A DNA stretch of 64,000 bases. It comes from a virus (Duplodnaviria > Heunggongvirae > Uroviricota > Caudoviricetes). The stretch lies in IMG/VR virus record IMGVR_UViG_3300015615_000881; one strand, written 5' to 3'. This document shows, one piece after another, positions 28,572 to 63,918 of the stretch (positions are counted from its first letter, which is position 1; each line of letters begins with the position of its first letter). The position numbers and the translations under genes were made by a program. Under the pieces are notes generated by a model. It was not told the DNA's origin, searched no databases, and saw nothing but the letters and a program-made list of their open reading frames with translations.

Positions 28572-28933
28572 CTCAAGAACACGCAGATCCCAGTGCCGTA
28601 CTTGCCGGAGGATGGCGGCGGGTTGTCGAACTTCTCCTTGGACACCGAAAGCCACTTGAAGCTCCGATGCTGAGCCCACGGCAAGTCATCCTTGATCCTG
28701 AACACCGGGGCGGGCGCGTTCGTCACCCCGAGTTGTTCGGAAGAGCAGACGTAATCCCATTTGATGTTGTCATCCGTCACATACAACTCGAAGTAGGTGG
28801 GCACGCTGGTGGAATCCACCTGCTTGAAGTTGAACGAGGTCACCGTGGCGGACTGGGGCGGCATCGGCACCGGAGGAGCCGACACCAACCCGACCGTGGC
28901 CAGGACGATTGCTGAAGCGATTAGTTGTCTCAT
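28568..28933 (-). CDS. small secreted protein
   Basis: Signal peptide MRQLIASAIVLATVGLVSAPP. 121 aa. ATGA coupling at both ends. Confidence 0.4.
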   Translation of the reverse strand: MRQLIASAIVLATVGLVSAPPVPMPPQSATVTSFNFKQVDSTSVPTYFELYVTDDNIKWDYVCSSEQLGVTNAPAPVFRIKDDLPWAQHRSFKWLSVSKEKFDNPPPSSGKYGTGICVFLR

Positions 28934-33428: not shown

Positions 33429-35075
33429 CTACGGAATGATCTCAATTCCGTTGATGGCGACGTGATACCCCGACCCGGCGCCAAGCAGGGGTGTCAGTCG
33501 CACTTTGATGATTCCGTTGCTGTCGGCGCGCAGGACAAAACTCTGGATGTTCGCCTTGAACTTCCCGCCGGCGGCCGCGATGACGTCGTAATTGGACACG
33601 CTTTGTGTCGTCTGGCCGATCACCTCGATGTTGAACCGCTGGTCGCCGGTGTTGTTCCACAGGATCTCGGCGAAGTGGAGCCGCACCGTGTAGTCCAGGG
33701 CGCGGGCCAGACCGGGAATCGTGTAGGTCAGCGGGTAGTTGTCGTAGAACTTGCCCCGGTGCGATTGATAGACCGCCTGGGGCGCCGGACTCACCACACC
33801 GCTCACGTCGATCGCATTGGGAACCGCGCCGGTTCCCCCGACGTCATAGTAGGCGTCGGCCGCGAAGGGTGCGGCGGCGGACCCGCCGCAGTTAAGCTTG
33901 ACCGTCGGGATGCTGCTCAAGGCGGGCTGCACATTCATCTCGAGATAGACGAAGCTCGCGAAATTCTCCACCCCGCTGCCGGCCGGGACCCCGCTGGTGC
34001 ATATCCACCGTGCGTACTCACCCACCTCGATGAACGTGCTGCCGAAGGTGACAGCGTTCTGCACCTCCACACCGTGGGCGCCGGCCGGGATGTCGATGGT
34101 GTCCCCCGTCAGGACGCCGTTCACCTGGAGGGCCAGCCGTTGCGGCAGAATCCCGGGATTGGCGGTCAGGTTCGTCTTGGTGACCAGCATCCGCTGCTCC
34201 CAGCGCTTGCGGCCACCGATGTAGTCGCCCAGGGCGACGAAGTCATGCCGCGTGTACAGCACCGGCTGATTCAACTGCACGAGGCTGACGTACTGGTCGA
34301 GCTTGACCTTGTCTGCGGCCGACAGGAGTCCGTCCGTGGACGTGGTTGCCACCGGGTGCGTGTGCTCGTAAGCCGCGGCGCCGCTGGTGCCGATCTTCGT
34401 GTAGATTCCCGCACTCGTATTGAGAATCCTGGCGCCCGGCGGGTTCGGATCCATCTTCACGTCACCGGAGATCTTCTGATCCCCGTCCACGATGGTGGGT
34501 GTCAACGTGGTGGACGCCTGGACCGTGACCTTGTTGTGCAAACCAACGTGCCCGTGATTGCCGCGGGCCACCTGGTTGACTCCGGATCCGAAATCGACCT
34601 GCAACCCGTCGCCCTCAATGATCAGGCCACTGTCGCCAGAAAGTTTGACCTCGCCGGCGAGGACCTGCCCGCCCGGCCCAGCCAGCGTGAACTCAATCGA
34701 CGTGCTGGTGCCAAGCGTTACCGGATCATGCAGCCCGCTGTGGGTATGGTTCTCGCTGGCGACGCCGGAGGTGGACAGGCCGTCACTATCCGAGGTGAGT
34801 CCCCCACCTGGCTTCAATGCAACCGCGGCGGACAACTCGCCGCCAGGGTCGTCATAGTTCCAGCGAACGGTGTGACTGTCCTGGATCAGGGCGGCGACCT
34901 GATCGGCCGTGGCCTCCGCAAAATCCGTGATCTGGCTCGACGTGTGCGTGTGGCCGGCGTCAACCCCAGATGAGATGGCCGCCTGCATCTGATCCAGACG
35001 CACCAGATGATTCGGAAGAGTCGCGGGATTCTCCGACGTGAACTGGGCTCCGGTGACGTTTCCGAGTTTGGCCAT
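33429..35075 (-). CDS. tail fibre protein with N-terminal HxH collar repeats and C-terminal malectin-like carbohydrate-binding domain
   Basis: Repeats GHTHTSSQITDF, ENHTHSGLHDPV, GNHGHVGLHNKV and YEHTHPVATTST match the phage tail fibre repeat. There is a central EVNGVLTG-type beta-domain. The C-terminus YTVRLHFAEILWNNTGDQRFNIEVIGQ matches the malectin signature. Confidence 0.6.
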   Translation of the reverse strand: MAKLGNVTGAQFTSENPATLPNHLVRLDQMQAAISSGVDAGHTHTSSQITDFAEATADQVAALIQDSHTVRWNYDDPGGELSAAVALKPGGGLTSDSDGLSTSGVASENHTHSGLHDPVTLGTSTSIEFTLAGPGGQVLAGEVKLSGDSGLIIEGDGLQVDFGSGVNQVARGNHGHVGLHNKVTVQASTTLTPTIVDGDQKISGDVKMDPNPPGARILNTSAGIYTKIGTSGAAAYEHTHPVATTSTDGLLSAADKVKLDQYVSLVQLNQPVLYTRHDFVALGDYIGGRKRWEQRMLVTKTNLTANPGILPQRLALQVNGVLTGDTIDIPAGAHGVEVQNAVTFGSTFIEVGEYARWICTSGVPAGSGVENFASFVYLEMNVQPALSSIPTVKLNCGGSAAAPFAADAYYDVGGTGAVPNAIDVSGVVSPAPQAVYQSHRGKFYDNYPLTYTIPGLARALDYTVRLHFAEILWNNTGDQRFNIEVIGQTTQSVSNYDVIAAAGGKFKANIQSFVLRADSNGIIKVRLTPLLGAGSGYHVAINGIEIIP

Positions 35076-45931: not shown

Positions 45932-46264
45932 TCAGGTTTTGTCGGCGCGGGCGATGGCGGCCGCATCAGTGTAACGAAAGCTGGGGTACCGTTGGGCGAG
46001 CTTGCTCATATTGCCGGCGAGGCACTGCTCGCGGGTGATCCCCAGGTGGCGGCGCAGGTCTTCCATGTAGAATTCCATATCACCGAGTTCCTCAACGATG
46101 TTCGGGACATCGATCGCCTTGCCGTAGATGATCTTCTTCTTGATCGCGTCCACCAACTCGCCGGCTTCGCCACTGATCCCCAGAACGGCGTGCATCAATC
46201 CGGCGTCACGGCCGTTCATCTGGTCGAGAATCGTCTGGCCGGGTTTCACCAGGGCGGCGACCAT
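45932..46264 (-). CDS. MazG-like nucleoside triphosphate pyrophosphohydrolase
   Basis: LGISGEAGELVDAIKK...NIVEELGDMEFYM...NMSKLAQR matches MazG/NTP-PPase helices with metal-binding Glu/Asp residues. The probable start is MVAALVK. Confidence 0.6.
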   Translation of the reverse strand: MVAALVKPGQTILDQMNGRDAGLMHAVLGISGEAGELVDAIKKKIIYGKAIDVPNIVEELGDMEFYMEDLRRHLGITREQCLAGNMSKLAQRYPSFRYTDAAAIARADKT

Positions 46265-46286
46265 GCTTTGAAATGCAGCTTCCACG

Positions 46287-47291
46287 TCAGGCCTTGGCGG
46301 GAGTGGTGGTGTAAATCGCATCCGGTTGCATGTCCCGCTCGGTTTGCATCAGCTTCAAGGCGGCGACTGTCTGGCGCATGGTGCGGTTCAACCCCTCGGC
46401 GGATCCGTCGAACATGATCATGTTGCCCGTGCCGTGTTCCGCGACGTGTTTGACCCCTTCGATCCACATGCTGAAGGCGATCAACGACACATCCAGCTTG
46501 TATTTCTCGAGTAACTCGGCGGACGACGCCATGCCTTTGGAGACTTCTTCACGGAATGCGGCGGCGCCAATGCCGCGCAGGCGGGAGGCCTCCGCTTCGG
46601 CCATGGCGGCGATTTTAATTGCGGCCCCCTGAGCCTCGGCTTCCTTCGTTTTCTCGATCAGCAGGGCGGCGCCCTCGTTGGTTGCGCTGGCGATCTTGTT
46701 GAGCGAGGCCACCACCGCGTTCATGGCCGTGGTGATTTCCTCGTTGAAGGTGATCTCGCGCACCTGCAAATCGATCAGTTGGTGGCCCCATTCGGCGAGT
46801 CGAAACTGGATCTGGCCGGTGACAAAATCGTTGATCTCCGATCGCAACCCAAGGACGTTCTGCTGCTGGGTCTTGGCGACCAGACCGCGGATGGTCGATT
46901 CAACCAGACCGTGAAACGCTGTTTTGAAATCATCCGATGAGTCGAATGCGTAGGCAGCACGTTTGACCGATTCATCTCCGTCATCGGCGAGGGCCGAGAC
47001 CACCACGATGTCGAGGGTCACAGTCGCCTGATCGAGGCTGATCGCCTCAAACTCGAGTTCGTCGCTCAGGTTCTGAAGCGTACCCGTTATGGCCACGCGG
47101 TCGATGAACGGACATTTGAAGTTCATGCCCGCACGAAGCACGCGATGGAACTGGCCCAGGCGCGTGACCACACCGAACCGGCCTTGCGGAATGATGACAA
47201 TTTGTTTCAGGGCGATGATGCCAATGATGATCCACAGAACAGTCTTCAGGATCTGGGAACCGTTGCTCGAAATGAATGCGATGGGGTCCAT
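46287..47291 (-). CDS. SPFH/band-7 (stomatin/HflKC-like) domain membrane protein
   Basis: N-terminal TM (ILKTVLWIIIGIIALKQIVII) and an SPFH core (IIPQGRFGVVTRLGQFHRVLRAGMNFKCPFIDRV...). The C-terminal segment is coiled-coil and Ala/Glu-rich. Confidence 0.6.
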   Translation of the reverse strand: MDPIAFISSNGSQILKTVLWIIIGIIALKQIVIIPQGRFGVVTRLGQFHRVLRAGMNFKCPFIDRVAITGTLQNLSDELEFEAISLDQATVTLDIVVVSALADDGDESVKRAAYAFDSSDDFKTAFHGLVESTIRGLVAKTQQQNVLGLRSEINDFVTGQIQFRLAEWGHQLIDLQVREITFNEEITTAMNAVVASLNKIASATNEGAALLIEKTKEAEAQGAAIKIAAMAEAEASRLRGIGAAAFREEVSKGMASSAELLEKYKLDVSLIAFSMWIEGVKHVAEHGTGNMIMFDGSAEGLNRTMRQTVAALKLMQTERDMQPDAIYTTTPAKA

Positions 47292-47296
47292 AATGG

Positions 47297-47704
47297 TTAC
47301 TTGGTTTTGAGAGGGCGGTGGTAGTGGCGGGTTTGTCCATTGAACTGACCGTAGAAAGTGCCGGAGGAGGCTTGGTACGTGAGGTTGGACCAACCCATGT
47401 AATTCAATTCCTGGATGCCGACGATCACGTTGTTCGCGCAGGCGTCGAACGCATCCTTGATCGGCATGAGTTGACCTGACGGCCCGGCGTCAGGTGGGGC
47501 TTGCGAGTTGGGTGGCCTGAACTCCGGCGGAACTGCGGTCTGCGCCGACGGAAGTGGTTGAGACGCGGGCAACTGATAGTAGATCGCCGGCAGTGGCGCA
47601 GGCGGCATTGCCGGCGCAGGGGAACGCAGCGTGAGGTGGGCGACTACGCCCAAGGCGCAGGCGACGAGGAAGGCGTGTTGTAGTGGTTTGAGTTTTGGAT
47701 CCAT
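47297..47704 (-). CDS. secreted proline-rich protein
   Basis: Signal peptide MDPKLKPLQHAFLVACALGVVAHLTL followed by a Pro-rich region. Confidence 0.35.
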   Translation of the reverse strand: MDPKLKPLQHAFLVACALGVVAHLTLRSPAPAMPPAPLPAIYYQLPASQPLPSAQTAVPPEFRPPNSQAPPDAGPSGQLMPIKDAFDACANNVIVGIQELNYMGWSNLTYQASSGTFYGQFNGQTRHYHRPLKTK

Positions 47705-47747: not shown

Positions 47748-49145
47748 TCATTCGGAGAGCACGGCCGTCACTAGGGACCTGGCGGTGTTGCATGGCACAG
47801 CGTTGCCAATCTGGCGGATGATGTCCTTTTTCGTCCCGGTGAAGTTGTAGTCGGAAGGGAATCCCTGGGCGGCGGCAAGTTCGTGAGGTTGGAGCATTCG
47901 ATACAGAATCTCCAGACGGTATTGCTTGCCATCGATTTTCATCTCGGGCTGGACCAACCCAAAGCGCGGGCGGGTAGTGACCGTTCCAAGTGGTTCGCGG
48001 ACGGAACGAGTAGTGCCGGTGCCGTAATATTCGACGAGGAAAGGCTCGACCAATCCAGCATGAACGCCGCCGGCGGAAATGGTCGGCACCGGTTCGTCGA
48101 TCGATTTTGCGGAAGCCTCAAGCTGACTGTGCTCGGTGCCCCGCAATTCAACCAGGTATGGTTGGATCAAAGCCATCGAAGCGCTTCCCACGACGGTTTG
48201 CAAAGGCTTGGCGACTGAACGAGCCGGAGAGGCATTCTGTTGGCCGATGATGAAAGGCTCGATCAGTGCCATCTCCCCTCGATTGGCGCAGGTGATTGTC
48301 GGGACTGGTCTATTGATGGAATGGACACGGCGATCAGTGCCGGATGAGTGAGTGACGTGGATAATGAAGGGTTCAAGCACCGCACCACCGTATTTCCTCA
48401 ATCCGGCGGCGATTCGGCGAAGGGTGTTTTCTTTGAGCGGACGTTCCCGGCTGAAAATCGAGGACCCCTTGATTCTCCAGTCAATGATCTCCCGAGCGGA
48501 TCTCCAGCGCTGGCTCGACTCCAATTGACGCTCGGCATCCGGTTTGAAATGGGTCGGTGACGGCCAGGCAAGTTTCCGGCGGCCGCGGACTGCCTGAACA
48601 AACAAGCGCTGCCGCGTCGTTGGATCACCGTAGTCAGCGGCGCAGAGGATTCGCCATTCGACCTTGTAACCGAGGGACTCCAGCATGCCGAGCCAGGCTT
48701 TGAAAGTCGCACCCTTCTTGGATTTGAGCGGGCGCCCACGGCGGCCCAGCGGGCCCCACTCCATGAACTCCTTCACGTTCTCGACGAGGATGACGTCCGG
48801 CCGAAGGGCCTCCGCCCAACGCGTGACGCAGTGCCCGGACGCCCGGCTTTGATCGTTCATGGGACGCCCACCGCGCGCGCGGGAATGGTGGGTGCACTCC
48901 GGAGACGCCCAAAGGATGTCCAACTTCCCGTCCGGATACAGGTGGCGCGGATTGATTGAGTCAACCGACGCGCAGACGTGCCGGGCACTGGGGTGGTTCG
49001 ATGTATGCGATTGGACGGCGACCGGCCAATGATTGACAGCGGTGAGCCGGGGCTCATACCCAAGCGACTCGGCGGCCTGCATTGCGCCGGTGCTCGTTCC
49101 GCCGGCGCCACAGAACAGGTCCGCGATCTCCAGGACTTTGGTCAT
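47748..49145 (-). CDS. DNA (cytosine-5)-methyltransferase with expanded, internally repeated target-recognition region
   Basis: Motif I DLFCGAGG. Motif IV WASPEC. Motif VI ILVENV. Motif VIII TRQRLFVQAV. Motif X QIGNAVP. Between motifs VIII and IX there are four tandem PxPTIT...(E/Q)PF(I/L) segments. Confidence 0.8.
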   Translation of the reverse strand: MTKVLEIADLFCGAGGTSTGAMQAAESLGYEPRLTAVNHWPVAVQSHTSNHPSARHVCASVDSINPRHLYPDGKLDILWASPECTHHSRARGGRPMNDQSRASGHCVTRWAEALRPDVILVENVKEFMEWGPLGRRGRPLKSKKGATFKAWLGMLESLGYKVEWRILCAADYGDPTTRQRLFVQAVRGRRKLAWPSPTHFKPDAERQLESSQRWRSAREIIDWRIKGSSIFSRERPLKENTLRRIAAGLRKYGGAVLEPFIIHVTHSSGTDRRVHSINRPVPTITCANRGEMALIEPFIIGQQNASPARSVAKPLQTVVGSASMALIQPYLVELRGTEHSQLEASAKSIDEPVPTISAGGVHAGLVEPFLVEYYGTGTTRSVREPLGTVTTRPRFGLVQPEMKIDGKQYRLEILYRMLQPHELAAAQGFPSDYNFTGTKKDIIRQIGNAVPCNTARSLVTAVLSE

Positions 49146-49339
49146 GCCATCACTGTCTCAACCTCGGAGACCTCGTCGAGCGAGACCGGACCTGGCTTGT
49201 TGCTGAGATAGACAACAATCTTCCCGTCCACGGCGGCAATGCTTCGGATGCGATAGAGCACTCCGTCATGCGGACCGCCAACGACGGGATGATAACGAAC
49301 ATACTGGCCGATTTCGATTTGGGTTTCATTCATACTCAT
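49142..49339 (-). CDS. hypothetical small protein
   Basis: ATGA-coupled to both neighbouring genes. Confidence 0.3.
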   Translation of the reverse strand: MSMNETQIEIGQYVRYHPVVGGPHDGVLYRIRSIAAVDGKIVVYLSNKPGPVSLDEVSEVETVMA

Positions 49340-49626
49340 TGTTCCACGTGTAACAGTTTGCTTGCTCGTTGCAAGTAAATTCTACCGAATAAACTGTTTC
49401 GACTGACTGCCAGCCACCGATTGAGGGCGGCGCGCCGTGCCGGGCAACCGCAATTCCCGAGGAACTTCTCCAGCCATTCCGGGCCGGCAGCGATGATGGC
49501 GCGCTTGATGGGGTCCGACTTGAGCGCGACCAGGTCGCCGAGGCCGAACACGTCCTCCTTCTGCACCTTGAACCCACCTGGCGGCGCTACCTCGTAGCCG
49601 AGAGCGGTCTTTCGAATGAGAGCCAT
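49336..49626 (-). CDS. hypothetical small protein
   Basis: ATGA-coupled. 96 aa. Confidence 0.3.
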   Translation of the reverse strand: MALIRKTALGYEVAPPGGFKVQKEDVFGLGDLVALKSDPIKRAIIAAGPEWLEKFLGNCGCPARRAALNRWLAVSRNSLFGRIYLQRASKLLHVEQ

Positions 49627-52600
49627 CAGTCAACGAGCTCCGCCTCGATGTATGTGGTTTGATCGACCAGCGGTGTGACCGTGACGCTGCGGGCGCTGGT
49701 GTTCGCGCAGCGGACACCTCCGGCGGATCGATTGTGGCCGATATAGAAGGTGCCGCCGGGAGGCTGGCCGGCGTCAAGGACTCCGGCCGGCGGCATAAGC
49801 TGACAGACCTCCGTGTTCGTTTGGTCGTCCTCAAACCGGTAGCCGTCGGCATCCTGGTCCCAAAAGTATGGAGTGGGGGTCTGGTTCGGAAAATTGCAGG
49901 GCGTAGCTTCCGCCTGGGTGGAGACCACAATCCCCCTGGGGACGGAGGTGAAGGTATGAACACGCGCAAGGAAACCGACGGCGCCGCCTTCCACAAGACC
50001 TTGGATCAAGGGCGGCAGGGCGTGAAGCGCGAGGGCATCGGTGGGCTGCATTCTCCAGTGAGTCACGGTCCTGAAGGAACTGAGCGCGAAAAGCCCCTCC
50101 CCACCAAAGCAGGGTTCGAGGGCGTTGAATCCGCCGAACGATGATGAGCCAAATCCGAGGCCGGCGGGTAACTCGTCCCACTCCTCGAGGTCGTTGCCGG
50201 GAAAGGCTTGACTGGCGGCGGGCAGCCCGGTGCTGGCCACCGCCTTCTTGTTCGCGTCGGTTTGGCAGATGGTGCCAGGTGGCCAGTTGGGTGCGATGCT
50301 GTCCGACCCGAAGTAGCTTTGACCCCGGGCTTGCAGCCGGAACGGGAGCATCATCCGCAGTCTCGTCAGTTTGTTGAAGACCTTGGCCATCCGGTTGAAC
50401 ACCTCGGCGCGCAGGACTGTGTTGGTCTGGGCGCTGAAGCCGAACATGGTGTCGGGGCGCTGGGCCGATGACATCGGGCCCTGGGACCGGCCACCGAACG
50501 CGTCAAAGAGCAGATTGTCCCAGGTGAAGTCGAACGAGGCGGTGATCGTGTCACCAAGCATCTGACCGCAGGTGGAGCAGCCGTAGGCCTGGGTGGTGGT
50601 GCCGTCGAGGAACGCTTCGCAGTACGCGCGCTGGTGCAATTCCATCTGCTGCATGATGTCCATCACAATCTTCGAGTCGCGGTCGGGATCGATGACGTCG
50701 TTGCCGTCCTCGTACTGCAATGGTGCCAACCGACAGAACAGGAAATCCGGATAGATTGATGCGTAGGGCGGGCCGAGCGTGGCGACCCGGATGTCACTTT
50801 CGGCGCCGTTGTCGCCGATCTTGGGCAGTGGTTTGTAGGAGGTCTCAGACTCGATGCCGCCGGTGTGAATGTGGTAGAGATATTGTCGGATGCCGTTCTC
50901 GAGGGACCGGTAGGGTTCGGCGGTGAGTTGATCCGGGGACCAGGTGTTCATGTCCGACGAAATGTCGCCGCCGATGCCGAAGTCGGCGGGACTGCAACAG
51001 TGGAAGCGACTCTTGAACGTGAGCTTGATGACCTCGTTGGCGCCCGGCGTGTCCACAATACAACTCTCGAGCTCGGGCCACGGTTCGTAGATCCGGCAGC
51101 TTTTGTAGAACCAGGTGCGCGTCTGGGCATCGGACGTTTGAAAGAACTGGTTGGACGTGCCTGCGTAGCGATAGCCGCTTGGGGCCTCCGGGGAAATGAG
51201 GCGGCTGATGCCGTAGTTGAAGTGGAAGCGCAGGTCAGGATTGTTGTAGCCGCGGATCTGGAGAGACCAGAAATGGCAGCGATCGCAGAGGGAGAAGTAG
51301 TCCGCCATGGCGGCGGGTTTCCACTGGCTGCTTTCGCTCCAATGCCAGGGCTTGAACTCCACGTTCATCAAGTGCTGGTTCGTGGTCCCCTGCTTGAGGG
51401 CGACGTGCCGGATGCCGTCGTAGATCCAGGGGCGGGCGTCGCCGGTGTGGGCAAACTCCTTGAGGCCGGCCAGGCCGGTGAATTTCTGACCGTTGGAGTA
51501 GTTGACCGGCGCTTCGGACGGACCGTAGGTGACGTGTCCGGACGTCGCGCGAACGATGTATGTCTCGCCTTCGGTGATCTCGCCAGTGAGGGTGGCGGCG
51601 ATGGGGGGCGCAATGTTGTGGAACGAATCCACTTCCATGTTGTTTTCACCGAGGGCGTACCGGGCGAACCAGAGACAGGACTTGCCATTCTCGACGGCGT
51701 ATTTGAGGACCTGCGCGCGAGGCACGAGGCGCATCAGGTCGCGACAGAGCCTGCGGGCGGCTTCATAGACAGGCTTGTCGTTGATGAACACACCCTCCAA
51801 TGGAAGACCTGGGGCACCGGAGCGGTTGAGGATGAGGCCGTGGTCGAAGTAGGCGTCGGACAGAATCTTCGGCGACAGGTAGCGGGTGCCGTCGCCATCG
51901 ACGGTGGCGATCGAGTCGCCGGTGGTGGTTGAGAGGCGCAGGACCAGATATTGGTCGTGGATGTCCGGCTTGTATTCGAGTTGCTCGGTGCATTCGATGT
52001 CGATGCGACCGGTGGCGTCCTCGAACACGGCGAGTGATTTGAGGCGGAACGAAAGGGGGCTCGGGTGAGGACCATCCGGGAAGGTGACGATCTGGCCCGG
52101 GACGTCGTCGGTAAGGACAATCTCCTTGAGCACCTTCCCATTGGTGCCGATCGCTTCAATGATGGCAGCGCCGATGAGTTTCGTGCATTTGAAGAACGCG
52201 GAGCCCAGGACAAATCCAGGTTCGTAGGCGTGAGTCGTTCCACCGCCAACGTGCGAGAACACCTGGCCGGCCTGGAAGACTTCGCCGGCGAGGAAGAACT
52301 GGGGCAGGTCGCGGACAACAAAGGATCCGTTCCAATGCCCGATGTTGGGGCTGAGCAGGTACTGGCTGGCGTTGAATCTTTCCACGTCGAATCCGAAGTC
52401 CTCGATGCTGTAGCCCGGGCTGGCGATCTCACCGACGGATCCGCGGTAGTCCTTGACGTACGCGGCCAGGCCCATGCGCGTGAGATGATCGCCGTCGGAT
52501 TTGGTGAGGGCCCCACCACACCGGTATGGCCCTTCGATGTAATCCTTGGTGCGAAGCGCGACCGGAATGTTGCTGCCCCAGACATAGACGAAGTACGCGG

Positions 52601-53393
52601 GGGGCGTACGCCCGATGAACCGGACGTGGCCGTTCACATTCGGACACGTCCCAGGAAAGCTGACCTCCTGCAGGCCGGGTCGAATCGGGGTGAAGAAGAT
52701 TCGGTGGTTGGGCGTTGGTGGTTGATCTTCAGTCGCGTCGCCACAGTCCCCGAGGTATTCCGGAAGCGGAAGGTAACCGCCGTAGGATTTGCCGTGGACG
52801 ATGGACCCACTGCCGCTGAGCGAGATCCGCACCACACCGTCATCACCGGCGACCGGGACCCACACGTCCGGGGTCAGTTGCTGAATCTTGTAGTAACTCT
52901 GGGCCGCGGCGAAGGCATTGGCGAGTTCGTGACCGGTGACGGGGTCGTACTGTCCGCGCTGAACCTTGCCGAGCTCCCAGATGGCTTCAATGGAGTCGTC
53001 GGGCTTGAGTGGCACGACCTCGAGGCGGACGTGCTCAGGGTCGGTGATCGGGTTTCCGAAGTGAAAGCCCATGAATGGACACGACAGGTTGGCGCCGGTG
53101 CCGAAACCGGGGTCAACGATGGGCCAGTCCGCACGGGCGATGTATGGGTCGAGATGGACGTAAAACTTGAACATCTCGAACATCGAGGGCCACAGGAGGG
53201 CAAGACCGCCACCGCTGGTGTCCGGATTACGGACCTGCCGAAAGCCGTTGAGGATGTAAAAGCAAACGCGCCAGGGCAGGTCGCCGATGGACCGGAGGCG
53301 ATCGTTGTCGGCGGTCGCCATGGCGTTGATCTGGGTGCTGGTGACCGGATCATCGATGGCGACTTCGGGAACGCGTTTGAAAACGAGGGCCAT
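49626..53393 (-). CDS. very large hypothetical protein (1255 aa), possible virion-associated
   Basis: A long uninterrupted ORF rich in Gly, Pro and aromatic residues. No catalytic motif was recognised. Confidence 0.45.
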   Translation of the reverse strand: MALVFKRVPEVAIDDPVTSTQINAMATADNDRLRSIGDLPWRVCFYILNGFRQVRNPDTSGGGLALLWPSMFEMFKFYVHLDPYIARADWPIVDPGFGTGANLSCPFMGFHFGNPITDPEHVRLEVVPLKPDDSIEAIWELGKVQRGQYDPVTGHELANAFAAAQSYYKIQQLTPDVWVPVAGDDGVVRISLSGSGSIVHGKSYGGYLPLPEYLGDCGDATEDQPPTPNHRIFFTPIRPGLQEVSFPGTCPNVNGHVRFIGRTPPAYFVYVWGSNIPVALRTKDYIEGPYRCGGALTKSDGDHLTRMGLAAYVKDYRGSVGEIASPGYSIEDFGFDVERFNASQYLLSPNIGHWNGSFVVRDLPQFFLAGEVFQAGQVFSHVGGGTTHAYEPGFVLGSAFFKCTKLIGAAIIEAIGTNGKVLKEIVLTDDVPGQIVTFPDGPHPSPLSFRLKSLAVFEDATGRIDIECTEQLEYKPDIHDQYLVLRLSTTTGDSIATVDGDGTRYLSPKILSDAYFDHGLILNRSGAPGLPLEGVFINDKPVYEAARRLCRDLMRLVPRAQVLKYAVENGKSCLWFARYALGENNMEVDSFHNIAPPIAATLTGEITEGETYIVRATSGHVTYGPSEAPVNYSNGQKFTGLAGLKEFAHTGDARPWIYDGIRHVALKQGTTNQHLMNVEFKPWHWSESSQWKPAAMADYFSLCDRCHFWSLQIRGYNNPDLRFHFNYGISRLISPEAPSGYRYAGTSNQFFQTSDAQTRTWFYKSCRIYEPWPELESCIVDTPGANEVIKLTFKSRFHCCSPADFGIGGDISSDMNTWSPDQLTAEPYRSLENGIRQYLYHIHTGGIESETSYKPLPKIGDNGAESDIRVATLGPPYASIYPDFLFCRLAPLQYEDGNDVIDPDRDSKIVMDIMQQMELHQRAYCEAFLDGTTTQAYGCSTCGQMLGDTITASFDFTWDNLLFDAFGGRSQGPMSSAQRPDTMFGFSAQTNTVLRAEVFNRMAKVFNKLTRLRMMLPFRLQARGQSYFGSDSIAPNWPPGTICQTDANKKAVASTGLPAASQAFPGNDLEEWDELPAGLGFGSSSFGGFNALEPCFGGEGLFALSSFRTVTHWRMQPTDALALHALPPLIQGLVEGGAVGFLARVHTFTSVPRGIVVSTQAEATPCNFPNQTPTPYFWDQDADGYRFEDDQTNTEVCQLMPPAGVLDAGQPPGGTFYIGHNRSAGGVRCANTSARSVTVTPLVDQTTYIEAELVD

Positions 53394-56368: not shown

Positions 56369-58972
56369 TTACGCCCAGCGGGCGACAACCTTTCCTCCGC
56401 CTGTGCCGGACCCGAGGCCGGCCATGATGAGGCGGACGTTTTCGTCGGCGATCTTCTGCAGCGCGAGACCGACTTCGATCGCGCCGGATTCGCCTTTGGA
56501 TTTTGAGGTCAGGTAATCCTGACCGTTGACCTTGACGAGAGAGTCGTTGACCTCGCAGGGGCCTTTGACGCGGACGAGGCAGCGGCCTTGGGGTTGAACG
56601 TGCAAAATGGAATTGGCGGGTTCGTTATTGCGGGTGACGACGCCGGCGAGAACGGTGTGATCGGCGGCGGCGGACGTGGGCATGACGGAGCGGGTGCCGG
56701 TGTTGACGTCGTCGCCGGCGGTGACGGGTTGGCGCCAGAGAGGGGTGCCGACGGCGAGATGGGAATCGTCGGGTGGACTGTCGATGACGGTGGGGACAGT
56801 GGGATCGGAGTGGCCGAGGAAACCGCGAAAGGCGTCGGACAGGTTCTTGTACGTGCGACGGCTTTGGCGGAGACCGGCGGCGACCATTTTCAGGGCGCGG
56901 GCTTGTTCGATGAGTTCCTGCTGGCCTGGGTAGAGGGATTGTTCGGCGCGGCGGCGGTCGTAGTCGCGTTCGGGTTCGTAGAAATTCTTGCTGCGTTCGT
57001 TTGCGAAATCAACTTCCTCCCAGTGTCCGTCGGCGCCGTAGTGGAGGGTCAGGCGGTTGTAAAAGCCGTTGAGTTGAATGGCCGTGTCGCCGGCGAGGAG
57101 GTAGCGGACGAACCCGCCGTCGGCGATGAGCAACTGGCGGGTGAGATAGGCTGTGCCGATGTCGATGGCTTTGGATACGGCGGTGGTACCGTCGGCGAAG
57201 GGGATCTCGATGGAGGCGCCGGAGACGGGGTCAAGGAGGTATTCGGAGTGGAGTTGGGGTTCGTTGACGGTGTAGTCGAGGGATCCGTTGGGGGTGGCGA
57301 CGGTGCGATAGATGAAGGGTTCGGCCTCGAAAGTGAGGCAGGCGATGACGGGTGGAATGGTTATGTCGATGCCGTCGATGACGCGGAACACGGCGTGGCC
57401 GTCGATGCGCTCGACGAGGCTTTCCGCGCGGATGACAGGTCCGTCGAAGAGAACGTATTTGTAGCCCTGGCCACTGTCGTCGATGTGGAACTGGGCGGCG
57501 GACCAGGTGGTGAGTGCGTCGGACCAGTTGGCGAGGTTGAAGCGGTCGGGGGAGAGGCCGCGGAAGATGTCCTGGGCGACCTGGTAACCGCGGATGATGG
57601 CCAGGCCGTTACCGTCGATCGGGGCGTTTAGGTCGGCGGTCATCACGCCCGTCGCGGGATTGAACTCGACTCTGGCGATCTGCTGTTCGACCAGATTGTA
57701 GGACCGGAGTGGGATCTGACGGACGACTCTTCCCCGCCCAGGGGATGGTTCGATGACGGCGAGATTGTCGGGAGGTTTGAAGCATCGGAAAAGGATGGTG
57801 TTGATGTACTGGACGCACGGCATGTCGAGGCGGGTGCGGCCGGCGAACTTGCGATAGTCGCGGAAAACCTCACCGGAGGGAGGACTGAGGGTGTCCTCGT
57901 GGGCGGCGAACTGACGGAGGGTCATCAGGGTGGACCGGGCGCGGGCTTTATGGCGGCCGATGATCTGTTCGGGATCGTCGGGTTGGCTGGTGTAGGGCAC
58001 GCCTTGTTCGTCGTTGAAGTTTCTGAAGACGTAGTCGTGGAAGAGTTCTTCGTCGTAGAAGAACTGCCATGCCGTGTTCCAGGCGGGCTCGAGACCGACG
58101 TTGATGATCTGGTAAACGTTGCGGCCGCCGAGAACGAAGACGCGCGTGGGCGCGGAGTTCATGGCGGTGCCGTCGCGGAGGATGTCGGTGTTGGGGGGAA
58201 AGACGAAGCGGCCGTCGGCAGAGAAGGAGCCTGGGGAAATGGATTCGTTCTGGCGCAGGACCCCCATGCGGGTCCAGTAGAGGGTCAGGCGTTGGGAGAG
58301 GGTGAATGTGAGACCCTGGCGGGCGCTGACTTCGACGAGGAAGGCGTCGAGGCGGCGGCCGTTGGTGGCATCGATGTTGAGAAGGGTCCGCTCGATCTGG
58401 TCGGGGTGATAGACGCGGGCCCATGGGGTGCCGATGGTTACGCCGGAGAATACGTAATCGAGGACCTGGGAGACGGACAGTGGGGTGTCGGTGTAGGTGC
58501 GGAGGCCTGAATCAAAATTGTTGGGTAGAATGTGCCAGTAACGCTTGCGGCGTTCAGGGAGACCGGTGACGGGCGAGTTCTCGATGGTGGTGTACACCAT
58601 GTTGAAGGCGCAGAAGGTCCAGTCGTCCTGGAGGTATTTGCGTTGGTCGAAGAAGCGGAGGATGCGGGTCTGGCCGCCGGATCCGGCGGCGGAGACGTCG
58701 GACATGCAAACGCCGTGGAAGACGCGGCCGGCGAAGGAGATCTCGGTGTAGGAGCCGACGGCGACGCCGCGTTCGCGGATGGCGGTTTGGACGACCACGT
58801 CGGGATTGGTGACGGATTCAGCGACGTAGTCGATGGTGGCCTCGCCGGGTTGGGCGCCCCAGGACATGGTGAAGTCGAGCTTGCTGATCTGGAACTGGGC
58901 GGCGGCTTGCTGGCCGGGACCGCGGAGTGGATCACGGACGGAAATGACCGGGGGTGGAACAGGATCAGGCAT
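56369..58972 (-). CDS. very large hypothetical protein (867 aa)
   Basis: A long ORF with no recognisable motif. It could be structural. Confidence 0.45.
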   Translation of the reverse strand: MPDPVPPPVISVRDPLRGPGQQAAAQFQISKLDFTMSWGAQPGEATIDYVAESVTNPDVVVQTAIRERGVAVGSYTEISFAGRVFHGVCMSDVSAAGSGGQTRILRFFDQRKYLQDDWTFCAFNMVYTTIENSPVTGLPERRKRYWHILPNNFDSGLRTYTDTPLSVSQVLDYVFSGVTIGTPWARVYHPDQIERTLLNIDATNGRRLDAFLVEVSARQGLTFTLSQRLTLYWTRMGVLRQNESISPGSFSADGRFVFPPNTDILRDGTAMNSAPTRVFVLGGRNVYQIINVGLEPAWNTAWQFFYDEELFHDYVFRNFNDEQGVPYTSQPDDPEQIIGRHKARARSTLMTLRQFAAHEDTLSPPSGEVFRDYRKFAGRTRLDMPCVQYINTILFRCFKPPDNLAVIEPSPGRGRVVRQIPLRSYNLVEQQIARVEFNPATGVMTADLNAPIDGNGLAIIRGYQVAQDIFRGLSPDRFNLANWSDALTTWSAAQFHIDDSGQGYKYVLFDGPVIRAESLVERIDGHAVFRVIDGIDITIPPVIACLTFEAEPFIYRTVATPNGSLDYTVNEPQLHSEYLLDPVSGASIEIPFADGTTAVSKAIDIGTAYLTRQLLIADGGFVRYLLAGDTAIQLNGFYNRLTLHYGADGHWEEVDFANERSKNFYEPERDYDRRRAEQSLYPGQQELIEQARALKMVAAGLRQSRRTYKNLSDAFRGFLGHSDPTVPTVIDSPPDDSHLAVGTPLWRQPVTAGDDVNTGTRSVMPTSAAADHTVLAGVVTRNNEPANSILHVQPQGRCLVRVKGPCEVNDSLVKVNGQDYLTSKSKGESGAIEVGLALQKIADENVRLIMAGLGSGTGGGKVVARWA

Positions 58973-59632: not shown

Positions 59633-59663
59633 TGTTGACCGATTCGACAGATTCTATTGATTT
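59633..59663. promoter_or_regulatory. degenerate copy of conserved element (ATAGAATCTGTCGAATCGGTCAACAG)
   Basis: It lies immediately downstream of the primase-helicase stop and at the head of the next operon. Confidence 0.35.
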
Positions 59664-62600
59664 ACGTTGTGCCTGGCAAGTTTTCTTCGCCGTCTTTTGG
59701 TTCGACGGCGTGGACGATCTCGAAGAGTTCGCCCTTGCGGGGATCGACCCATTCACCGGTGGGCCAGGAGACGCCGGGAGACTTTTCCCATGAGTCGCGC
59801 ATGACGTCGTCGGTGACGGGTTGGTAGCCGAGTTCGTGGAAGTCGAGGTCAACGGCCCAGCAGTTGGAGCCGGCGGGGGCGTCGCCGAACCGTTGCTTGT
59901 GCACGCAGCCGTTGGGAGGGTTGACCCAGGACCGGCGCTGGCTCATCTGCGACTTCAGGTCGGAGTGGTTGAGGGACATGGTTTTACCCTGTTGGCGGTA
60001 GTGGCGTTGGAGAAGGTCGAGAACGACGCCGTGAACGAAGTAGAGGCGGTAGCTGACCCATCTTATGCCGCGGAAACAGTGGACACATTCTTCGTGTGCA
60101 TCGTGGGGATCGACGCCGGGGGGATGGATTGATTCACCGAGGCGGCGGGCTTTGAACATTTTGGACAGGTCGGCGCGGCCGTGGCCGAAGACGCCGGCGC
60201 GGAGGGCGTTGACGATGTCGGTCCAGATGCGATTGACGTCCACGTTTTCGGCGACGGTGGCGCTGCCGGCGGCGCATTCGACCAGGGTAAACCTGTGAAA
60301 CTGTTTGATGTCGGTGGGGGAGTGGGAGTTTAGGAGTGAGACCATGGAGGCCATGGCGGAGTAGCCGACGCCGTAAACGTAGCGGGCGCGTTGCTCGATG
60401 GACTCGATGGCGGGATCTGCCATCCACTTCTCGAGGTTCTCGAGTACGCCTTGAACGAACTTGGGGCGGTTGCGGAGGAGGTGGCGGCCGAGGAGGTAGA
60501 ACTGGTCGCAGTTGGCCTGGAACCAGTCGAAGTGATTGACGCGGCGTTTCTGGTCGGAGACCTGGATGTGGGGGAATCGGGAGCGGACCTGGGCGTCGGA
60601 GGAGGTGGCGATGCCGGTGACCACGACGCTGCCGAGGATGCGGCGCATGCCCTCGCCGAACGTTTTCTTGATGCCGGCTTCGCGGTTGTAGGAGTTCTTG
60701 ATGGTCTCGATGATCTCCGGGGGGCTGTCGGTTTGGAACTCCTCTAACCACACCGGCAGGTTGGAATACTGCTGGAGGACGATGCAGATGCCGACGCGGG
60801 AGGAGCCTTTGAGGACGATGCCGACGTCCTTGGTGAAGCCCCAGATGTGTTGGAGCCATTTGGCGGTGGATGATTTGCCTTTGCCTTTTTCGCCGTGGAG
60901 CCAGAGGCCTGGGAAGGCGGTGAACTTCTGGTAGAGCTCGGGAGCGGCGGCGTAGGCGAGCATCATGCCGAGAGTGAGGTAACCTTCGTAGCCGCCGAGG
61001 GCGTCGTTGAGGCGGGTGGAGACGTTCTGGAAGAGATCGACGATGGCCTCGTTTTCGGATTCGAACTTGCCGCCCACAGCATCGAGCCAGACGTCTTTGG
61101 CGTTGATGTCGGGACGCATGAGGGGGCGGCCCAGTTTGAACTCTTCACCTTCGTGGTCGCGATCGGCCATCTTGTACCCCTTGCCTTCGTGCCAGAGGAT
61201 GCCGGTTTGTTTGTCGGGGGTGAGTTCGACGTTGTCGCCGAGGATGAGGTCGTCGAAGAACCAGAGTTTGGAGCGGGAATGCCAGCCGAAGTAGGGGACC
61301 TCGAGTACGGATTTGTGCGCGAGGGCGTTGGCCATGTCCTTCTGGAGGTTTTGCATCTCGCGTTCGCCGGCGCCCCAGGTGGCGTTGGCGTGGAGGTTGA
61401 GCCAGACGCGCATCTGTTTGGGGGCGCTCCAGGATTCGGCGTCGAGATCGAGGACCTCGGTTTTTTCGCCGTGGATGTTGAAGATGCGAACAAGACGGCG
61501 CAGTTCCCCGCTCTCCTTTTGGAGGATGTGCAGGGGAATCATGTAGAAGTCGGTGAACTGTTCGGGGACACCTTCGAGGGCGATGGAGCAGGCCCATTCG
61601 TAGTCGAGGTCGTGCTGGTGATGGGCGATCTCCCGGCGGAAACGCCAGTTTTGTTCGTAGTTGGCGTCGTCGGGGACCTTGTCTTTGCGTGGCAGGGGTT
61701 TGAGTTGGTAATACCCTTCGGTTAGTTCGCGATACTGGCGGGAGAGCCATGAGAGATAGGTGAGGGCGGCGTCGGGGATCCGGCCTTGTTTACGGCGGCA
61801 CTCCCACACGAAATCGGTGAGCTTGCGGACGAGCCACTTCTCGCGGTCGCCGGCGCGGGGCAGTTTGGGTTCGTAGCTGATGGCCCGGAGTTTTCGGTGG
61901 ATGGTCTTTTCCTCATCTTCAGAGAACAACCCAAGCTGACGGAAGGACGAGACGGTATGGGACTTCTTTAAAACCTCGACGAAGACTTTTTGAATCGGCG
62001 GCTTTCTCGACAGCCAGTCAGGTTCGGCGGCGGGTTGGTCGGAGTGGAGGAGGTGCGACAGGTGGCCATCCCAGTCGGCCTTGCCGTTCTCGTCGCGCCA
62101 GTCGTTGGGGAGCACGCAGACGCGGGCGTCGTAACCGTCACGGGCGAGTTGCTCGGCGAGGTAGCGGGCCCAGACCTGGGTATCGTAGCGTTTCCAGGGA
62201 TCCTTTTTGAACCCGGGCAGATTTGGGTTGCCTTTGTCCTCGTTGTCGAAGGCGACGCAGACGCGGCGGGCGCCGGAGGATCTGAGCCACTTCTCGAGGG
62301 CGGCGCGGACCCACCAGGATCCGCCGCTGGACTTGCTCATGCTGATGCCTGGCAGGGCGGCGACGCCGAAGGCTGCCGTGCCGTCCTCCTTGCGTAAATC
62401 TCCCAACACCTGGCTCACGGCAAGTGCCTTGAACTCACCCTCGCAGATGATGGCGGTGTCGAACTTGCGTTGATTCTGGCGGTCGGGAAAGGGGACGTAG
62501 AGATGGGGCGATCGCCCTTTGAGCATCTCCTTGTGTGGGCGCAGTTGGAGGAGGCGGCCGCGATCGTCGAAGTAGGGAATGAGGATTGGTTGGGTCCAGT

Positions 62601-63918
62601 CGAACTCCCACTCATTATCCTTGTCGCCTTCAGTCCGGGGCTTCTTACACTTGCGGCCCCAACCGTGGTAGAACGGGTTGGGCTTTGGTTCAGAGCGTTC
62701 GTGTTGGACCCACAAGCCACAGGCGATGAGGGTCTCGAGTTTGAACTCCTTCTCGAGAGAGAGAAGGATTTCCTTGTTGGAATGGTTGTTGGATTTGAGA
62801 GGCTGCCGGGTGTCGGCGATGAGGCCGCGTTTGATCCATGTTTTTTGGGCGTCGTCGTCGGTGAGAGAGATCCGGTTGTAGAACACGGCGAGCGCATCGG
62901 AGACTGATCGATCATCTTCACCGTCGTCCGGGCCATCAGGCGGAGGACCGCCAGGCGGTTCGGACGGTGGCCCAGTGGGCGGTTGGAATACTGAAATAGA
63001 AGGCGCTCCGGCAGAATGGGGCACTGCTGATGCAGCGTCCTGCGGAGCGCTCGGAGTCCCTTCGGGTTTACCTGCACCGGGGGATTGTTCCGTGAACAAC
63101 TGGGGACCATCCGGAAGAGCGGGAGAACTTTCGGATGCAGCGGGGCTGCCAGTTGAAAGCGAAGAAATCAGTACGGCACGAGGTTGCCTTGGAGAAAGGA
63201 AAGGCCCCACGACCCCTAGCCGTTCCAGTTCTTCAATTATTTTCGCGGCTACAGAGTTCCCGATGCGCAAATTGGCCTTGATTTCGCGCGCGGAACACGA
63301 CTGGGTCCGGATCACCAGGTCGCGGGCGGCGGCCACCCGGGCGGCCATGATCAACTCGGGCGTGAGCTCCGCGACTGCGACTGTTGCAGCGGGGGGCGGA
63401 TTCGTTGCATCCGGAGGCGGAATCGTTTCACCAGCCGCTGCAGTTGTCTCACTCTCAGGTTCGGGGACTTGTGGCTCTGAAGGTTCGGACGGTGGTTCGG
63501 GGAGGGCGGATGGAGGTGGAATGACGGCGGCGGCTTCTGGATCAACAGGCCCGGAGACCCGGCGGGGGCGCTGGCCGGGCATGATGCTGGGTGAGTGGGT
63601 CGGTTCCTTCCATACACCAGCTTCCTTGAGGTAGGTCTTGAAGGCCTCCGCGCGGCCAATGGACAGCTTGTAGCCGAGGTATCCGACCTCGTCGAACGAC
63701 GCCTTTGGCCCGCTGGTGCCGCTGGGGCACGACGTGTGGAAACACTTGAACCACTGGCGGGATCCACGCTCGGAAACGCTGGCACCGGACTTCCGGCAGA
63801 AAGGGCATGGAAACCCTTTCCACTTGCCATTCTGAGGGCCGTCTCCGTACTGTTCCATCAACAGCTTGAGCGGCAGAGCAGCCCTGGCGTCCTCGATCCT
63901 TGCGTTATCAGCACTCAC
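59662..63918 (-). CDS. bifunctional DNA primase / SF3 (D5-like) helicase, P4-alpha-like, with FtsK-gamma-like winged helix
   Basis: CHC2 zinc finger FPCPFC...FKCFHTSC. A Pro-rich linker. wHTH LRIGNSVAAKIIEELERLGVVGP. TOPRIM motifs IICEGEFKALA and VAFDNEDKG. Walker A GEKGKGKSS and Walker B WLEEFQTD. Length 1418 aa. Confidence 0.75.
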   Translation of the reverse strand: MSADNARIEDARAALPLKLLMEQYGDGPQNGKWKGFPCPFCRKSGASVSERGSRQWFKCFHTSCPSGTSGPKASFDEVGYLGYKLSIGRAEAFKTYLKEAGVWKEPTHSPSIMPGQRPRRVSGPVDPEAAAVIPPPSALPEPPSEPSEPQVPEPESETTAAAGETIPPPDATNPPPAATVAVAELTPELIMAARVAAARDLVIRTQSCSAREIKANLRIGNSVAAKIIEELERLGVVGPFLSPRQPRAVLISSLSTGSPAASESSPALPDGPQLFTEQSPGAGKPEGTPSAPQDAASAVPHSAGAPSISVFQPPTGPPSEPPGGPPPDGPDDGEDDRSVSDALAVFYNRISLTDDDAQKTWIKRGLIADTRQPLKSNNHSNKEILLSLEKEFKLETLIACGLWVQHERSEPKPNPFYHGWGRKCKKPRTEGDKDNEWEFDWTQPILIPYFDDRGRLLQLRPHKEMLKGRSPHLYVPFPDRQNQRKFDTAIICEGEFKALAVSQVLGDLRKEDGTAAFGVAALPGISMSKSSGGSWWVRAALEKWLRSSGARRVCVAFDNEDKGNPNLPGFKKDPWKRYDTQVWARYLAEQLARDGYDARVCVLPNDWRDENGKADWDGHLSHLLHSDQPAAEPDWLSRKPPIQKVFVEVLKKSHTVSSFRQLGLFSEDEEKTIHRKLRAISYEPKLPRAGDREKWLVRKLTDFVWECRRKQGRIPDAALTYLSWLSRQYRELTEGYYQLKPLPRKDKVPDDANYEQNWRFRREIAHHQHDLDYEWACSIALEGVPEQFTDFYMIPLHILQKESGELRRLVRIFNIHGEKTEVLDLDAESWSAPKQMRVWLNLHANATWGAGEREMQNLQKDMANALAHKSVLEVPYFGWHSRSKLWFFDDLILGDNVELTPDKQTGILWHEGKGYKMADRDHEGEEFKLGRPLMRPDINAKDVWLDAVGGKFESENEAIVDLFQNVSTRLNDALGGYEGYLTLGMMLAYAAAPELYQKFTAFPGLWLHGEKGKGKSSTAKWLQHIWGFTKDVGIVLKGSSRVGICIVLQQYSNLPVWLEEFQTDSPPEIIETIKNSYNREAGIKKTFGEGMRRILGSVVVTGIATSSDAQVRSRFPHIQVSDQKRRVNHFDWFQANCDQFYLLGRHLLRNRPKFVQGVLENLEKWMADPAIESIEQRARYVYGVGYSAMASMVSLLNSHSPTDIKQFHRFTLVECAAGSATVAENVDVNRIWTDIVNALRAGVFGHGRADLSKMFKARRLGESIHPPGVDPHDAHEECVHCFRGIRWVSYRLYFVHGVVLDLLQRHYRQQGKTMSLNHSDLKSQMSQRRSWVNPPNGCVHKQRFGDAPAGSNCWAVDLDFHELGYQPVTDDVMRDSWEKSPGVSWPTGEWVDPRKGELFEIVHAVEPKDGEENLPGTT

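Follow-up and report, generated by a model that had tools for sequence, protein, structure and literature searches.

A tailed-phage C5-cytosine methyltransferase with four tandem recognition-like units, probably multispecific, in a large family with variable and exchangeable unit arrays

The 64,000-nucleotide stretch of tailed-phage (Caudoviricetes) DNA held in IMG/VR as record IMGVR_UViG_3300015615_000881, referred to here as the window, encodes a C5-cytosine DNA methyltransferase of 465 amino acids (aa) that carries four tandem units of 32-39 aa each (aa 258-398) between its catalytic motifs VIII and IX. From its sequence and by analogy with the multispecific methyltransferases of Bacillus phages, the enzyme is probably an orphan phage methyltransferase in which each module sets one target, which would give it up to four. 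Multispecificity of the window enzyme itself is plausible and indirectly supported. Arrays of the same kind, differing in the number, type and order of their units, were found throughout the family to which the enzyme belongs.

Catalytic core and enzyme class

The coding sequence is complete and occupies positions 47748..49145 on the minus strand (465 aa plus the stop codon), being the sole open reading frame (ORF) with exactly these coordinates. The window protein matched the Pfam family PF00145 (E 9.1e-37; 127.6 bits, cutoff 22) in two stretches, one N-terminal (aa 6-200) and one C-terminal, which flank the repeats. It also matched PHROG 116, 'DNA methyltransferase' (E 2e-78), and its score with TIGR00675 (dcm), 97.4 bits, lay slightly below the 100.65-bit cutoff. 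Searches against PDB sequences matched only the catalytic parts of DNMT1, 3G7U, HhaI and HaeIII.

The N-terminal catalytic half (aa 1-200; 48546..49145, minus strand) matches the catalytic domains of DNMT1, HhaI and 3G7U and contains motif I (DLFCGAGG, at aa 9), motif IV, motif VI (ENV, at aa 122) and motif VIII (T-R-Q-R, aa 177-180), with residues that are invariant in the 28 as well as in the 120 homologues aligned. Motif IV is the variant S-P-E-C (aa 81-84), that is, P-x-C and not P-C, with Cys84 as the catalytic cysteine. Because S81, P82, C84 and S88 are invariant across the 120 homologues, this variant is a family trait and not damage; a P-x-C motif IV is likewise present in Pyei1_p05, the enzyme of Paracoccus phage Pyei1. 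The C-terminal catalytic part (aa 399-465; 47751..47951, minus strand) consists of a beta-hairpin (KIDGKQYRLEILY), motif IX (RMLQPHELAAAQGFP, aa 416-430) and motif X (GNAVP, at aa 447), and matches the C-terminal motifs of HaeIII and DNMT1.

The units are preceded by a family-specific segment (aa 201-257; 48375..48545, minus strand) with conserved columns of the pattern WPxPTH...AREIIDW...SI..R.RPL..NT..RI..GL. Near-invariant or fully invariant columns are W194, P195, H199, D222, W223, R233, P236, L237, R244, I245 and G248.

Structure models of the core were confident. AlphaFold2, given a 28-sequence alignment, modelled the core of the window protein with a predicted local distance difference test score (pLDDT) of 85-96, and its C-terminal catalytic part with 84-95. 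A second model was made from 120 sequences for P0007 (P-numbers denote homologues; P0007 is 63% identical to the window protein and has 4 units), and in it the pre-unit segment reached a confident pLDDT of 80-95. The P0007 model superimposed on HhaI and HaeIII with target-normalised template modelling (TM) scores of 0.65-0.68, and a Foldseek search with it returned generic C5-methyltransferase matches only, including HhaI, HaeIII and DNMT1 at E of about 1e-14 to 1e-16.

An earlier interpretation made without database searches (the sequence-only reading) had described the methyltransferase as intact, and this was confirmed by the PF00145 match and by the presence of motifs I, IV (variant P-E-C), VI, VIII, IX and X. 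By these motifs and matches the window protein is a C5-cytosine DNA methyltransferase in class, and its predicted activity is methyl transfer to the C5 of cytosine in DNA.

Four tandem units between motifs VIII and IX

Each of the four units was detected by a hidden Markov model (HMM) of the unit, and they differ in how closely they resemble the unit types described below. Unit 1 (aa 258-295, EPFIIHVTHSSGTDRRVHSINRPVPTITCANRGEMALI; 48261..48374, minus strand; independent E-value (i-E) 1.3e-11) is divergent, has the pattern 'TH...TCANRGE' and belongs to no main type, its best single match being 0.56; similar units of the form 'TH ... T(C/G)ANRGE' also occur in Rhizobium phage RR1-A and Caulobacter phage Sansa. 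Unit 2 (aa 296-327, EPFIIGQQNASPARSVAKPLQTVVGSASMALI; 48165..48260, minus strand; i-E 6.5e-10) is divergent as well, with type B-like loops ('GQQ', QQS...) and best single matches of 0.52, one of them to a type B unit. Unit 3 (aa 328-366, QPYLVELRGTEHSQLEASAKSIDEPVPTISAGGVHAGLV; 48048..48164, minus strand; i-E 7.4e-11) is of type F, with a mean identity of 0.57 and a best match of 0.72 to that type. Unit 4 (aa 367-398, EPFLVEYYGTGTTRSVREPLGTVTTRPRFGLV; 47952..48047, minus strand; i-E 1.7e-15) is of type A.

When unit pairs were compared by local protein alignment with 1000 shuffles, five of the six pairs scored 6-10 standard deviations (SD) above the shuffled sequences, and the pair of units 2 and 3 at 2.5 SD. 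The scaffold residues of the family are retained in all four units. When the unit region was scanned with Tandem Repeats Finder, no tandem repeat was detected in the DNA; compared as nucleotide sequences, the units are 56-70% identical, and their longest shared exact run measures 9 nucleotides. A 465-aa protein of identical sequence was found on each of four independent JGI metagenome contigs (124-198 kb). The repeats are real, old and diverged. Misassembly is excluded because there is no DNA-level repeat and the identical protein is found on four independent contigs, and with it falls the possibility, raised in the sequence-only reading, that the repeats are mis-assembled low-complexity sequence.

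The same reading had quoted four PxPT(I/V)T...(E/Q)PF(I/L) segments, all of which were located, at aa 279, 313, 351 and 384. It had also stated that such a segment usually follows the target-recognition domain; this had to be corrected, as the segment lies inside the target-recognition region, at the conserved 'T-L' position.

A very large family with variable unit arrays

A homology search yielded more than 7,900 matches, of which the best 120 (42-63% identical to the window protein, 421-756 aa long) were analysed. The iterated unit HMM located 767 units in these 120 homologues, with 3-12 units per protein and a mode of 6. Protein length followed unit number closely (r = 0.977; slope, 37 aa per unit), and the length differences among homologues thus stem from variation in unit number. 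A profile of 67 diverse units was run against 1.84 billion representative proteins. It matched 3,281 clusters (50% identity) with an E-value limit of 1e-3 and 470 with a limit of 1e-30, and a single protein contained as many as 12 matched stretches. Ten of the best-matching proteins, the longest included, were sampled, and every one was a C5-methyltransferase.

Relatives were also widespread in sequenced phages: tblastn found them in 372 records, 296 of which cover at least 80% of the query. The hosts of these phages include Gordonia, Mycobacterium, Pseudomonas, Arthrobacter, Vibrio, Aeromonas, Myxococcus, cyanobacteria and Bacillus, and longer members are found in Caulobacter, Rhizobium and Paracoccus phages and in Halobacterium virus phiH. 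Genomic relatives come from Syntrophales, Acidobacteria, Verrucomicrobia, Chloroflexi, Elusimicrobia, Alphaproteobacteria and haloarchaea. The window protein shares with the PHROG 116 array family full-length homology, the P-x-C core and a unit array that ends in type A. Judged by these comparisons, it is an ordinary, rather short member of a very large phage family. The suggestion that it may be a 'new repeat-expanded variant' did not hold: its four units are close to the family minimum, so the protein is not repeat-expanded, and the family is already common among phages.

Several family members of 930-1050 aa (P0147, P0171, P0194, P0205, P0227 and P0263) contain an intein, with Hint/intein-splicing and LAGLIDADG homing endonuclease domains, in the N-terminal catalytic half, and P0145 (1066 aa) has a PRAI-like stretch at its C-terminus.

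Unit types, common scaffold and variable loops

Clustering of the 767 units on the HMM alignment gave 27 types with at least 3 members, 20 of them with at least 5; types A to G comprise 118, 109, 81, 57, 55, 47 and 46 units, respectively. Identity within types is 0.57-0.76, as against an overall median of 0.34. All units follow one layout, in which a strand (E/Q)PF(L/I)(V/I) leads into loop 1, then the segment S-(V/I)-D-x-P-x-x-T-(V/I)-T, loop 2 and a closing strand x-(A/G)-L-(V/I). The scaffold columns common to all types are P2, F3, L4 and V5; S17, V18, D19 and P21; T24 and V25; and G/A32, L33 and V34. Two zones, columns 6-11 (reaching to about 16) and columns 26-31, vary strongly from type to type and are conserved within a type, and at most of their columns the entropy drops by at least 2 bits within types. 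Because they vary between types and are conserved within them, the two zones show the pattern expected of specificity loops carried on a common fold. The pattern of type A, as an example, is YYGT...TVTTKxRFGLV.

Gain, loss and reordering of units

The order of units is constrained at the C-terminal end of the array and fluid elsewhere. Type A was the last unit in 117 of the 120 homologues and type B the penultimate one in 92; the adjacent order BA occurred 92 times and CB 61 times. Altogether 94 distinct unit orders were counted among the 120 proteins. In 85 pairs of homologues the first 250 residues are at least 85% identical and the arrays nevertheless differ. P0041 (KHFCJBA) and P0077 (JHFCBA), for instance, have 98% identical cores, and P0026 (EDGFCBA) and P0060 (EDFCBA) have cores that are 93.5% identical. 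P0035 (KHFCJBA) and P0089 (KHFCBA) are another natural pair with differing arrays. P0007 (DFBA) and P0092 (DBA), with about 93% identity in their first 250 residues, give a BLASTP alignment with gaps totalling 39 residues within the array, which correspond to one type F unit, a clean insertion or deletion.

Individual types also persist over long distances. Units of types A, B, E and I/L can be recognised in enzymes from Aeromonas phage phiARM81mr, Paracoccus phage Pyei1, Rhizobium phage RR1-A and Halobacterium virus phiH, the catalytic cores of which are about 30-38% identical to that of the window protein or of P0003, and a type A-like last unit is present in the Aeromonas, Rhizobium and Paracoccus phage enzymes. 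The dcm5 protein of Halobacterium virus phiH is a 628-aa family member with five units, including clear type B-like and E-like ones; because of these two units, cassettes can be said to cross the boundary between bacteria and archaea. As read from these sequences, the units evolve as mobile, individually conserved cassettes.

Comparison with multispecific and monospecific enzymes

The C5-methyltransferases of the Bacillus phages SPR, phi3T, rho11s and H2 methylate three, two, two to three, and three targets, respectively. Their recognition domains, according to work of the Trautner laboratory, are reportedly about 40-50 aa long, independent and arranged in tandem, with occasional inactive 'pseudo-domains'; such pseudo-domains are said to have been documented in these enzymes by Lange et al. 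in 1991. We fetched the four sequences for comparison. A regular expression for (S)PT(L/I)TT-type motifs between motifs VIII and IX found two each in SPR and phi3T and four each in rho11s and H2, spaced 41-47 aa apart, and a third variant in SPR, SHTLSAS, was recognised by eye. All four proteins end with the segment EPAFTVNTIDRHG, which we take to be the GGCC module common to them.

The window enzyme resembles this group (M.SPRI, M.Phi3TI, M.Rho11sI and M.H2I, studied in the Trautner, Noyer-Weidner and Walter laboratories) in that all are phage-encoded orphan C5-methyltransferases, that tandem P-T-(L/I/V)-T modules lie between motifs VIII and IX (at a spacing of 41-47 aa in the Bacillus enzymes and 33-38 aa in the window protein), and that the last module is constant and the upstream modules vary. 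The comparison with SPR and phi3T proposed in the sequence-only reading was therefore apt, since in the Bacillus enzymes an (S)PT(L/I)TT-type motif recurs about every 41-47 aa between VIII and IX, and tested relatives of the window protein protect against many restriction enzymes (PMC3925955). The Bacillus phage enzymes presumably serve to protect against several restriction systems (PMC12707154).

There are also clear differences. Motif IV is S-P-E-C in the window protein and S-P-C-Q in the Bacillus enzymes. The units of the window family are more regular and are bounded by (E/Q)PF(L/I)V strands; they number 3-12 per protein, compared with 2-4, and fall into at least 20 types. Unlike the Bacillus group, the window family extends across many bacterial phyla and into haloarchaeal viruses. 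BLASTP aligned the window protein with SPR at 24% identity in the N-terminal catalytic half, with a weak second segment from unit 4 to motif X; within it, unit 4 aligned weakly with the last SPR recognition segment (EPAFTVNTIDRHG, E 0.06). No significant sequence similarity between the modules of the two groups was found with the unit HMM. The resemblance is one of architecture: to judge by its sequence the window protein works like the Bacillus group, but with a core identity of 24% and marginal unit-HMM matches it is not a member of it. The rule of one module for one target is proven for the Bacillus enzymes and would apply to the window family by analogy.

With the monospecific enzymes M.HhaI, M.HaeIII and Dcm the window protein shares the fold and the catalytic motifs, and in those enzymes, too, a single P-x-x-T-(V/L)-type segment shortly precedes motif IX. 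The last (GGCC) module of SPR contains EPAFTV as an example of the P-x-x-T type, and M.HaeIII presumably carries EPAFTV as well. These enzymes, however, have one recognition domain of about 80-100 aa, whereas the window protein has four units of about 35 aa.

Experimentally studied relatives

Among family members, only the enzymes studied by Dziewit, Radlinska, Decewicz and colleagues come with experimental data, and protection against many restriction enzymes is reported only for those of P. aminophilus. Two Paracoccus aminophilus prophage enzymes of about 700 aa, JCM7686_0772 and JCM7686_2655, were expressed in E. coli and conferred partial protection against about 16 restriction enzymes (PMC3925955, Additional file 8). 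Their family membership rests on a published identity of about 69% to Pyei1_p05 (PMC6536676), which was itself analysed here: the HMM found at least seven units in it, eight P-x-x-T motifs were counted in its unit region, and it matched the window protein in BLASTP at 34% identity (E 1e-74). Partial protection was reported against AluI (AGCT), BglI, Bme1390I (CCNGG), BsuRI (GGCC), CaiI, EcoO109I, EcoRII (CCWGG), Hin6I (GCGC), HpaII/MspI (CCGG), HpyF10VI, NciI, PauI, PvuII, TaiI (ACGT) and XhoI, and no protection at CGCG, TCGCGA, GATC, GGNNCC, CCWWGG, CTAG, CATG, GANTC, CCGCTC, ACGCGT and CCATGG (PMC3925955). Because several protected sites lack CC and close relatives of protected sites are cut, this pattern fits a discrete set of targets better than a CC rule.

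The window protein belongs to the same family as the enzymes described by Dziewit, Radlinska and Decewicz (JCM7686_0772/_2655, ARM81mr p29, Pyei1 p05 and RR1-A gp60), with which it shares the P-x-C motif IV, unit arrays (five to 7-9 units in those enzymes) and a type A-like last unit. These enzymes are longer, at 565-697 aa compared with 465 aa and four units in the window protein. ARM81mr_p29, which has five units and shows 38% identity across 99% of the window protein, is reported to have relaxed specificity (PMC5537653). In the reports consulted on this group, the enzymes are described as having relaxed specificity and tandem recognition modules go unmentioned.

A 2025 review credits arrays of recognition domains to Bacillus temperate phages only (PMC12707154). 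The full-text literature that we searched, which leaves several key primary papers outside it, contained no description of the unit arrays of this family, and an earlier account is possible. The family-wide cassette architecture appears to be under-described in the literature.

Proposed mechanism and alternative explanations

If the window enzyme works as the Bacillus phage enzymes do, a single catalytic core (aa 1-257 and 399-465) would be served by four mini target-recognition domains, each self-contained, as in M.SPRI, M.Phi3T, M.Rho11s and M.H2I. HhaI has a conserved T-L position, and by analogy with it the P-x-x-T-(V/I)-T segment of each module would be directed to the DNA backbone near the flipped cytosine, with the two loops directed to the major groove. 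One module would be engaged at a time, so that up to four short sequences could be methylated in the phage genome, and methylation at several targets may protect that genome from several host restriction systems. Extended to the family, the same idea gives a combinatorial system of natural origin, in which each of the 20 or more conserved types of cassette, about 35 aa long, may have a target of its own, and cassettes are combined 3-12 per enzyme and rapidly reshuffled in the arms race between phage and host; this broader idea we hold tentatively, at a little under an even chance.

Several observations weigh against the assignment of one target to each unit. The published account of the P. aminophilus enzymes speaks of 'relaxed specificity' with protection that is only partial (PMC3925955), and a later wording is 'at least one cytosine in CC' (PMC5537653). 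A search of all PDB sequences with the unit profile gave no match at E up to 10, and the unit HMM, in a search of the four sequences SPR, phi3T, rho11s and H2, gave marginal matches (i-E 0.04-0.13), at PT(L/I)TT and EPAFTV. Units 1 and 2 of the window protein lie outside the main types and could conceivably be degenerate, and the terminal type A unit, being nearly universal, could have a structural function and not confer specificity.

A further point against it is that the arrays were modelled poorly, so that the units could be independent domains or could pack into one. In the window protein, units 2-4 had pLDDT below 50, which makes the array model unusable, and in P0007 the first unit reached 81-91 and the others 35-76. 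The unit adjoining the pre-array segment scored best in both models, that of the window protein reaching only about 60-77, and the later units, the terminal type A unit included, were poorly predicted despite some 110-120 aligned sequences. This poor prediction could reflect alternative docking of equivalent units or ambiguity of the alignment.

In one alternative, the units are structural repeats packed together as a single extended domain that binds DNA, methylation falls on a short degenerate context (CC or GC, for example), and extra units alter affinity or processivity and not the number of targets. The 'relaxed substrate specificity' and partial protection reported for the tested relatives would suit such a composite domain, as would the largely conserved ...C-B-A order (BA 92, CB 61). 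In the P0007 model, moreover, the ...ALVEPFLV... boundary between units forms one continuous strand of about ten residues (285-294, the sole confident boundary), which would fit a continuous sheet. However, the protection is sequence-selective: AGCT, GCGC, ACGT and CTCGAG, which contain no CC, were protected and CGCG, GATC and CCATGG were fully cut, so that a single degenerate motif fails. The free insertion, deletion and reordering of units between near-identical enzymes is hard to square with one cooperative fold, and within a type the conservation of the loop residues spans bacterial phyla and reaches an archaeal virus. We therefore regard a composite domain as unlikely.

Alternatively, the enzyme could be effectively monospecific, with only the terminal type A unit, perhaps together with one neighbour, reading DNA and the upstream units being relics ('pseudo-domains') or spacers. 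Type A is nearly always last and adjoins motif IX, where ordinary enzymes have their single recognition segment; pseudo-domains are reportedly found in the Bacillus phage enzymes; and units 1 and 2 of the window protein are atypical. Relics would be expected to decay, though, and the loops of upstream units are under clear purifying selection and conserved across very distant hosts. In the window protein the scaffold residues are complete in all four units, and relatives with many units protect against many restriction enzymes. Effective monospecificity is, on this evidence, quite improbable.

Transfer of a group other than methyl, for example of carboxymethyl from carboxy-S-adenosylmethionine (Cx-SAM) as by the phage enzyme CmoX, in the first step of a DNA hypermodification, has very little chance of being the true activity. 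CmoX (PDB 8YF3) was among the sequence and fold matches and phages do employ such enzymes (PMC12783734), but 8YF3 was no better a match than ordinary methyltransferases. CmoX genes normally lie beside cmoA and a ligase gene, and no such Pfam matches were present around the window enzyme. Moreover, relatives expressed alone in E. coli produced modification that blocked restriction enzymes sensitive to 5-methylcytosine, an argument weakened by the fact that E. coli does supply Cx-SAM.

An assembly artefact or a chance similarity can be dismissed as next to impossible given the lack of a DNA repeat, the four independent contigs, the significance against shuffles and the occurrence of the same architecture in thousands of proteins.

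Implications

Were the combinatorial reading of the family to be true, no known DNA methyltransferases would be more multispecific than its members, which would far exceed the Bacillus phage enzymes with their 2-5 targets and would provide a ready-made set for reading a cassette-to-motif recognition code. One target per module would also explain how many temperate phages evade several restriction systems with one gene, and would offer a mechanism behind the 'relaxed specificity' of the Paracoccus and Aeromonas phage enzymes. Under the same rule, natural pairs of enzymes with a one-module difference would make it possible to assign targets quickly to module types, and modules could be used to build methyltransferases with chosen targets. 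For the window gene, the result is mostly clarifying, as it is a typical short family member; the family-level picture is the more useful one.

Genomic context

All long ORFs in the window lie on the minus strand. They include a tape-measure protein (PF10145; 7213-10617, minus strand) and a primase-like protein of 1418 aa (59662-63918, minus strand). Just downstream of the methyltransferase gene are those for an SPFH/Band-7 protein (46287-47393, minus strand) and a MazG-like pyrophosphatase (45932-46321, minus strand). The immediate neighbours of the methyltransferase gene had no match in Pfam, PHROGs or PADLOC, and in the same three resources no restriction endonuclease, Vsr or cmoA partner was recognisable beside it; because no such partner is recognisable, the methyltransferase is regarded as an orphan.

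A 65-aa ORF (49142-49339, minus strand) overlaps the start codon of the methyltransferase gene by 4 nucleotides (ATGA), which suggests translational coupling of the two. In one sister contig this ORF was called as 63 aa, and the downstream ORF (47297-47704 in the window, 135 aa) as 56 aa; because the calls differ, otherwise identical phages appear to differ by small changes here. Further upstream, two large ORFs of 1255 aa (49626-53393, minus strand) and 867 aa (56369-58972, minus strand) had no Pfam or PHROG match, and a PADLOC scan of the 1255-aa ORF was also blank.

Three large proteins of the structural region (22833-24014, 28930-30654 and 33429-35075, all minus strand) contain Calx-beta, Malectin and weak BNR-like domains, which suggests that they are carbohydrate-binding tail fibres or receptor-binding proteins. 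A lone tRNA-Met (CAT) gene (13309-13383, minus strand) lies amid the phage structural genes. The GC skew shifts from about -0.1 (38-44 kb) to between +0.1 and +0.24 (44-64 kb), with a cumulative-skew minimum near 44 kb and most long ORFs still on the minus strand; this change may mark a replication origin, a terminus or a module boundary.

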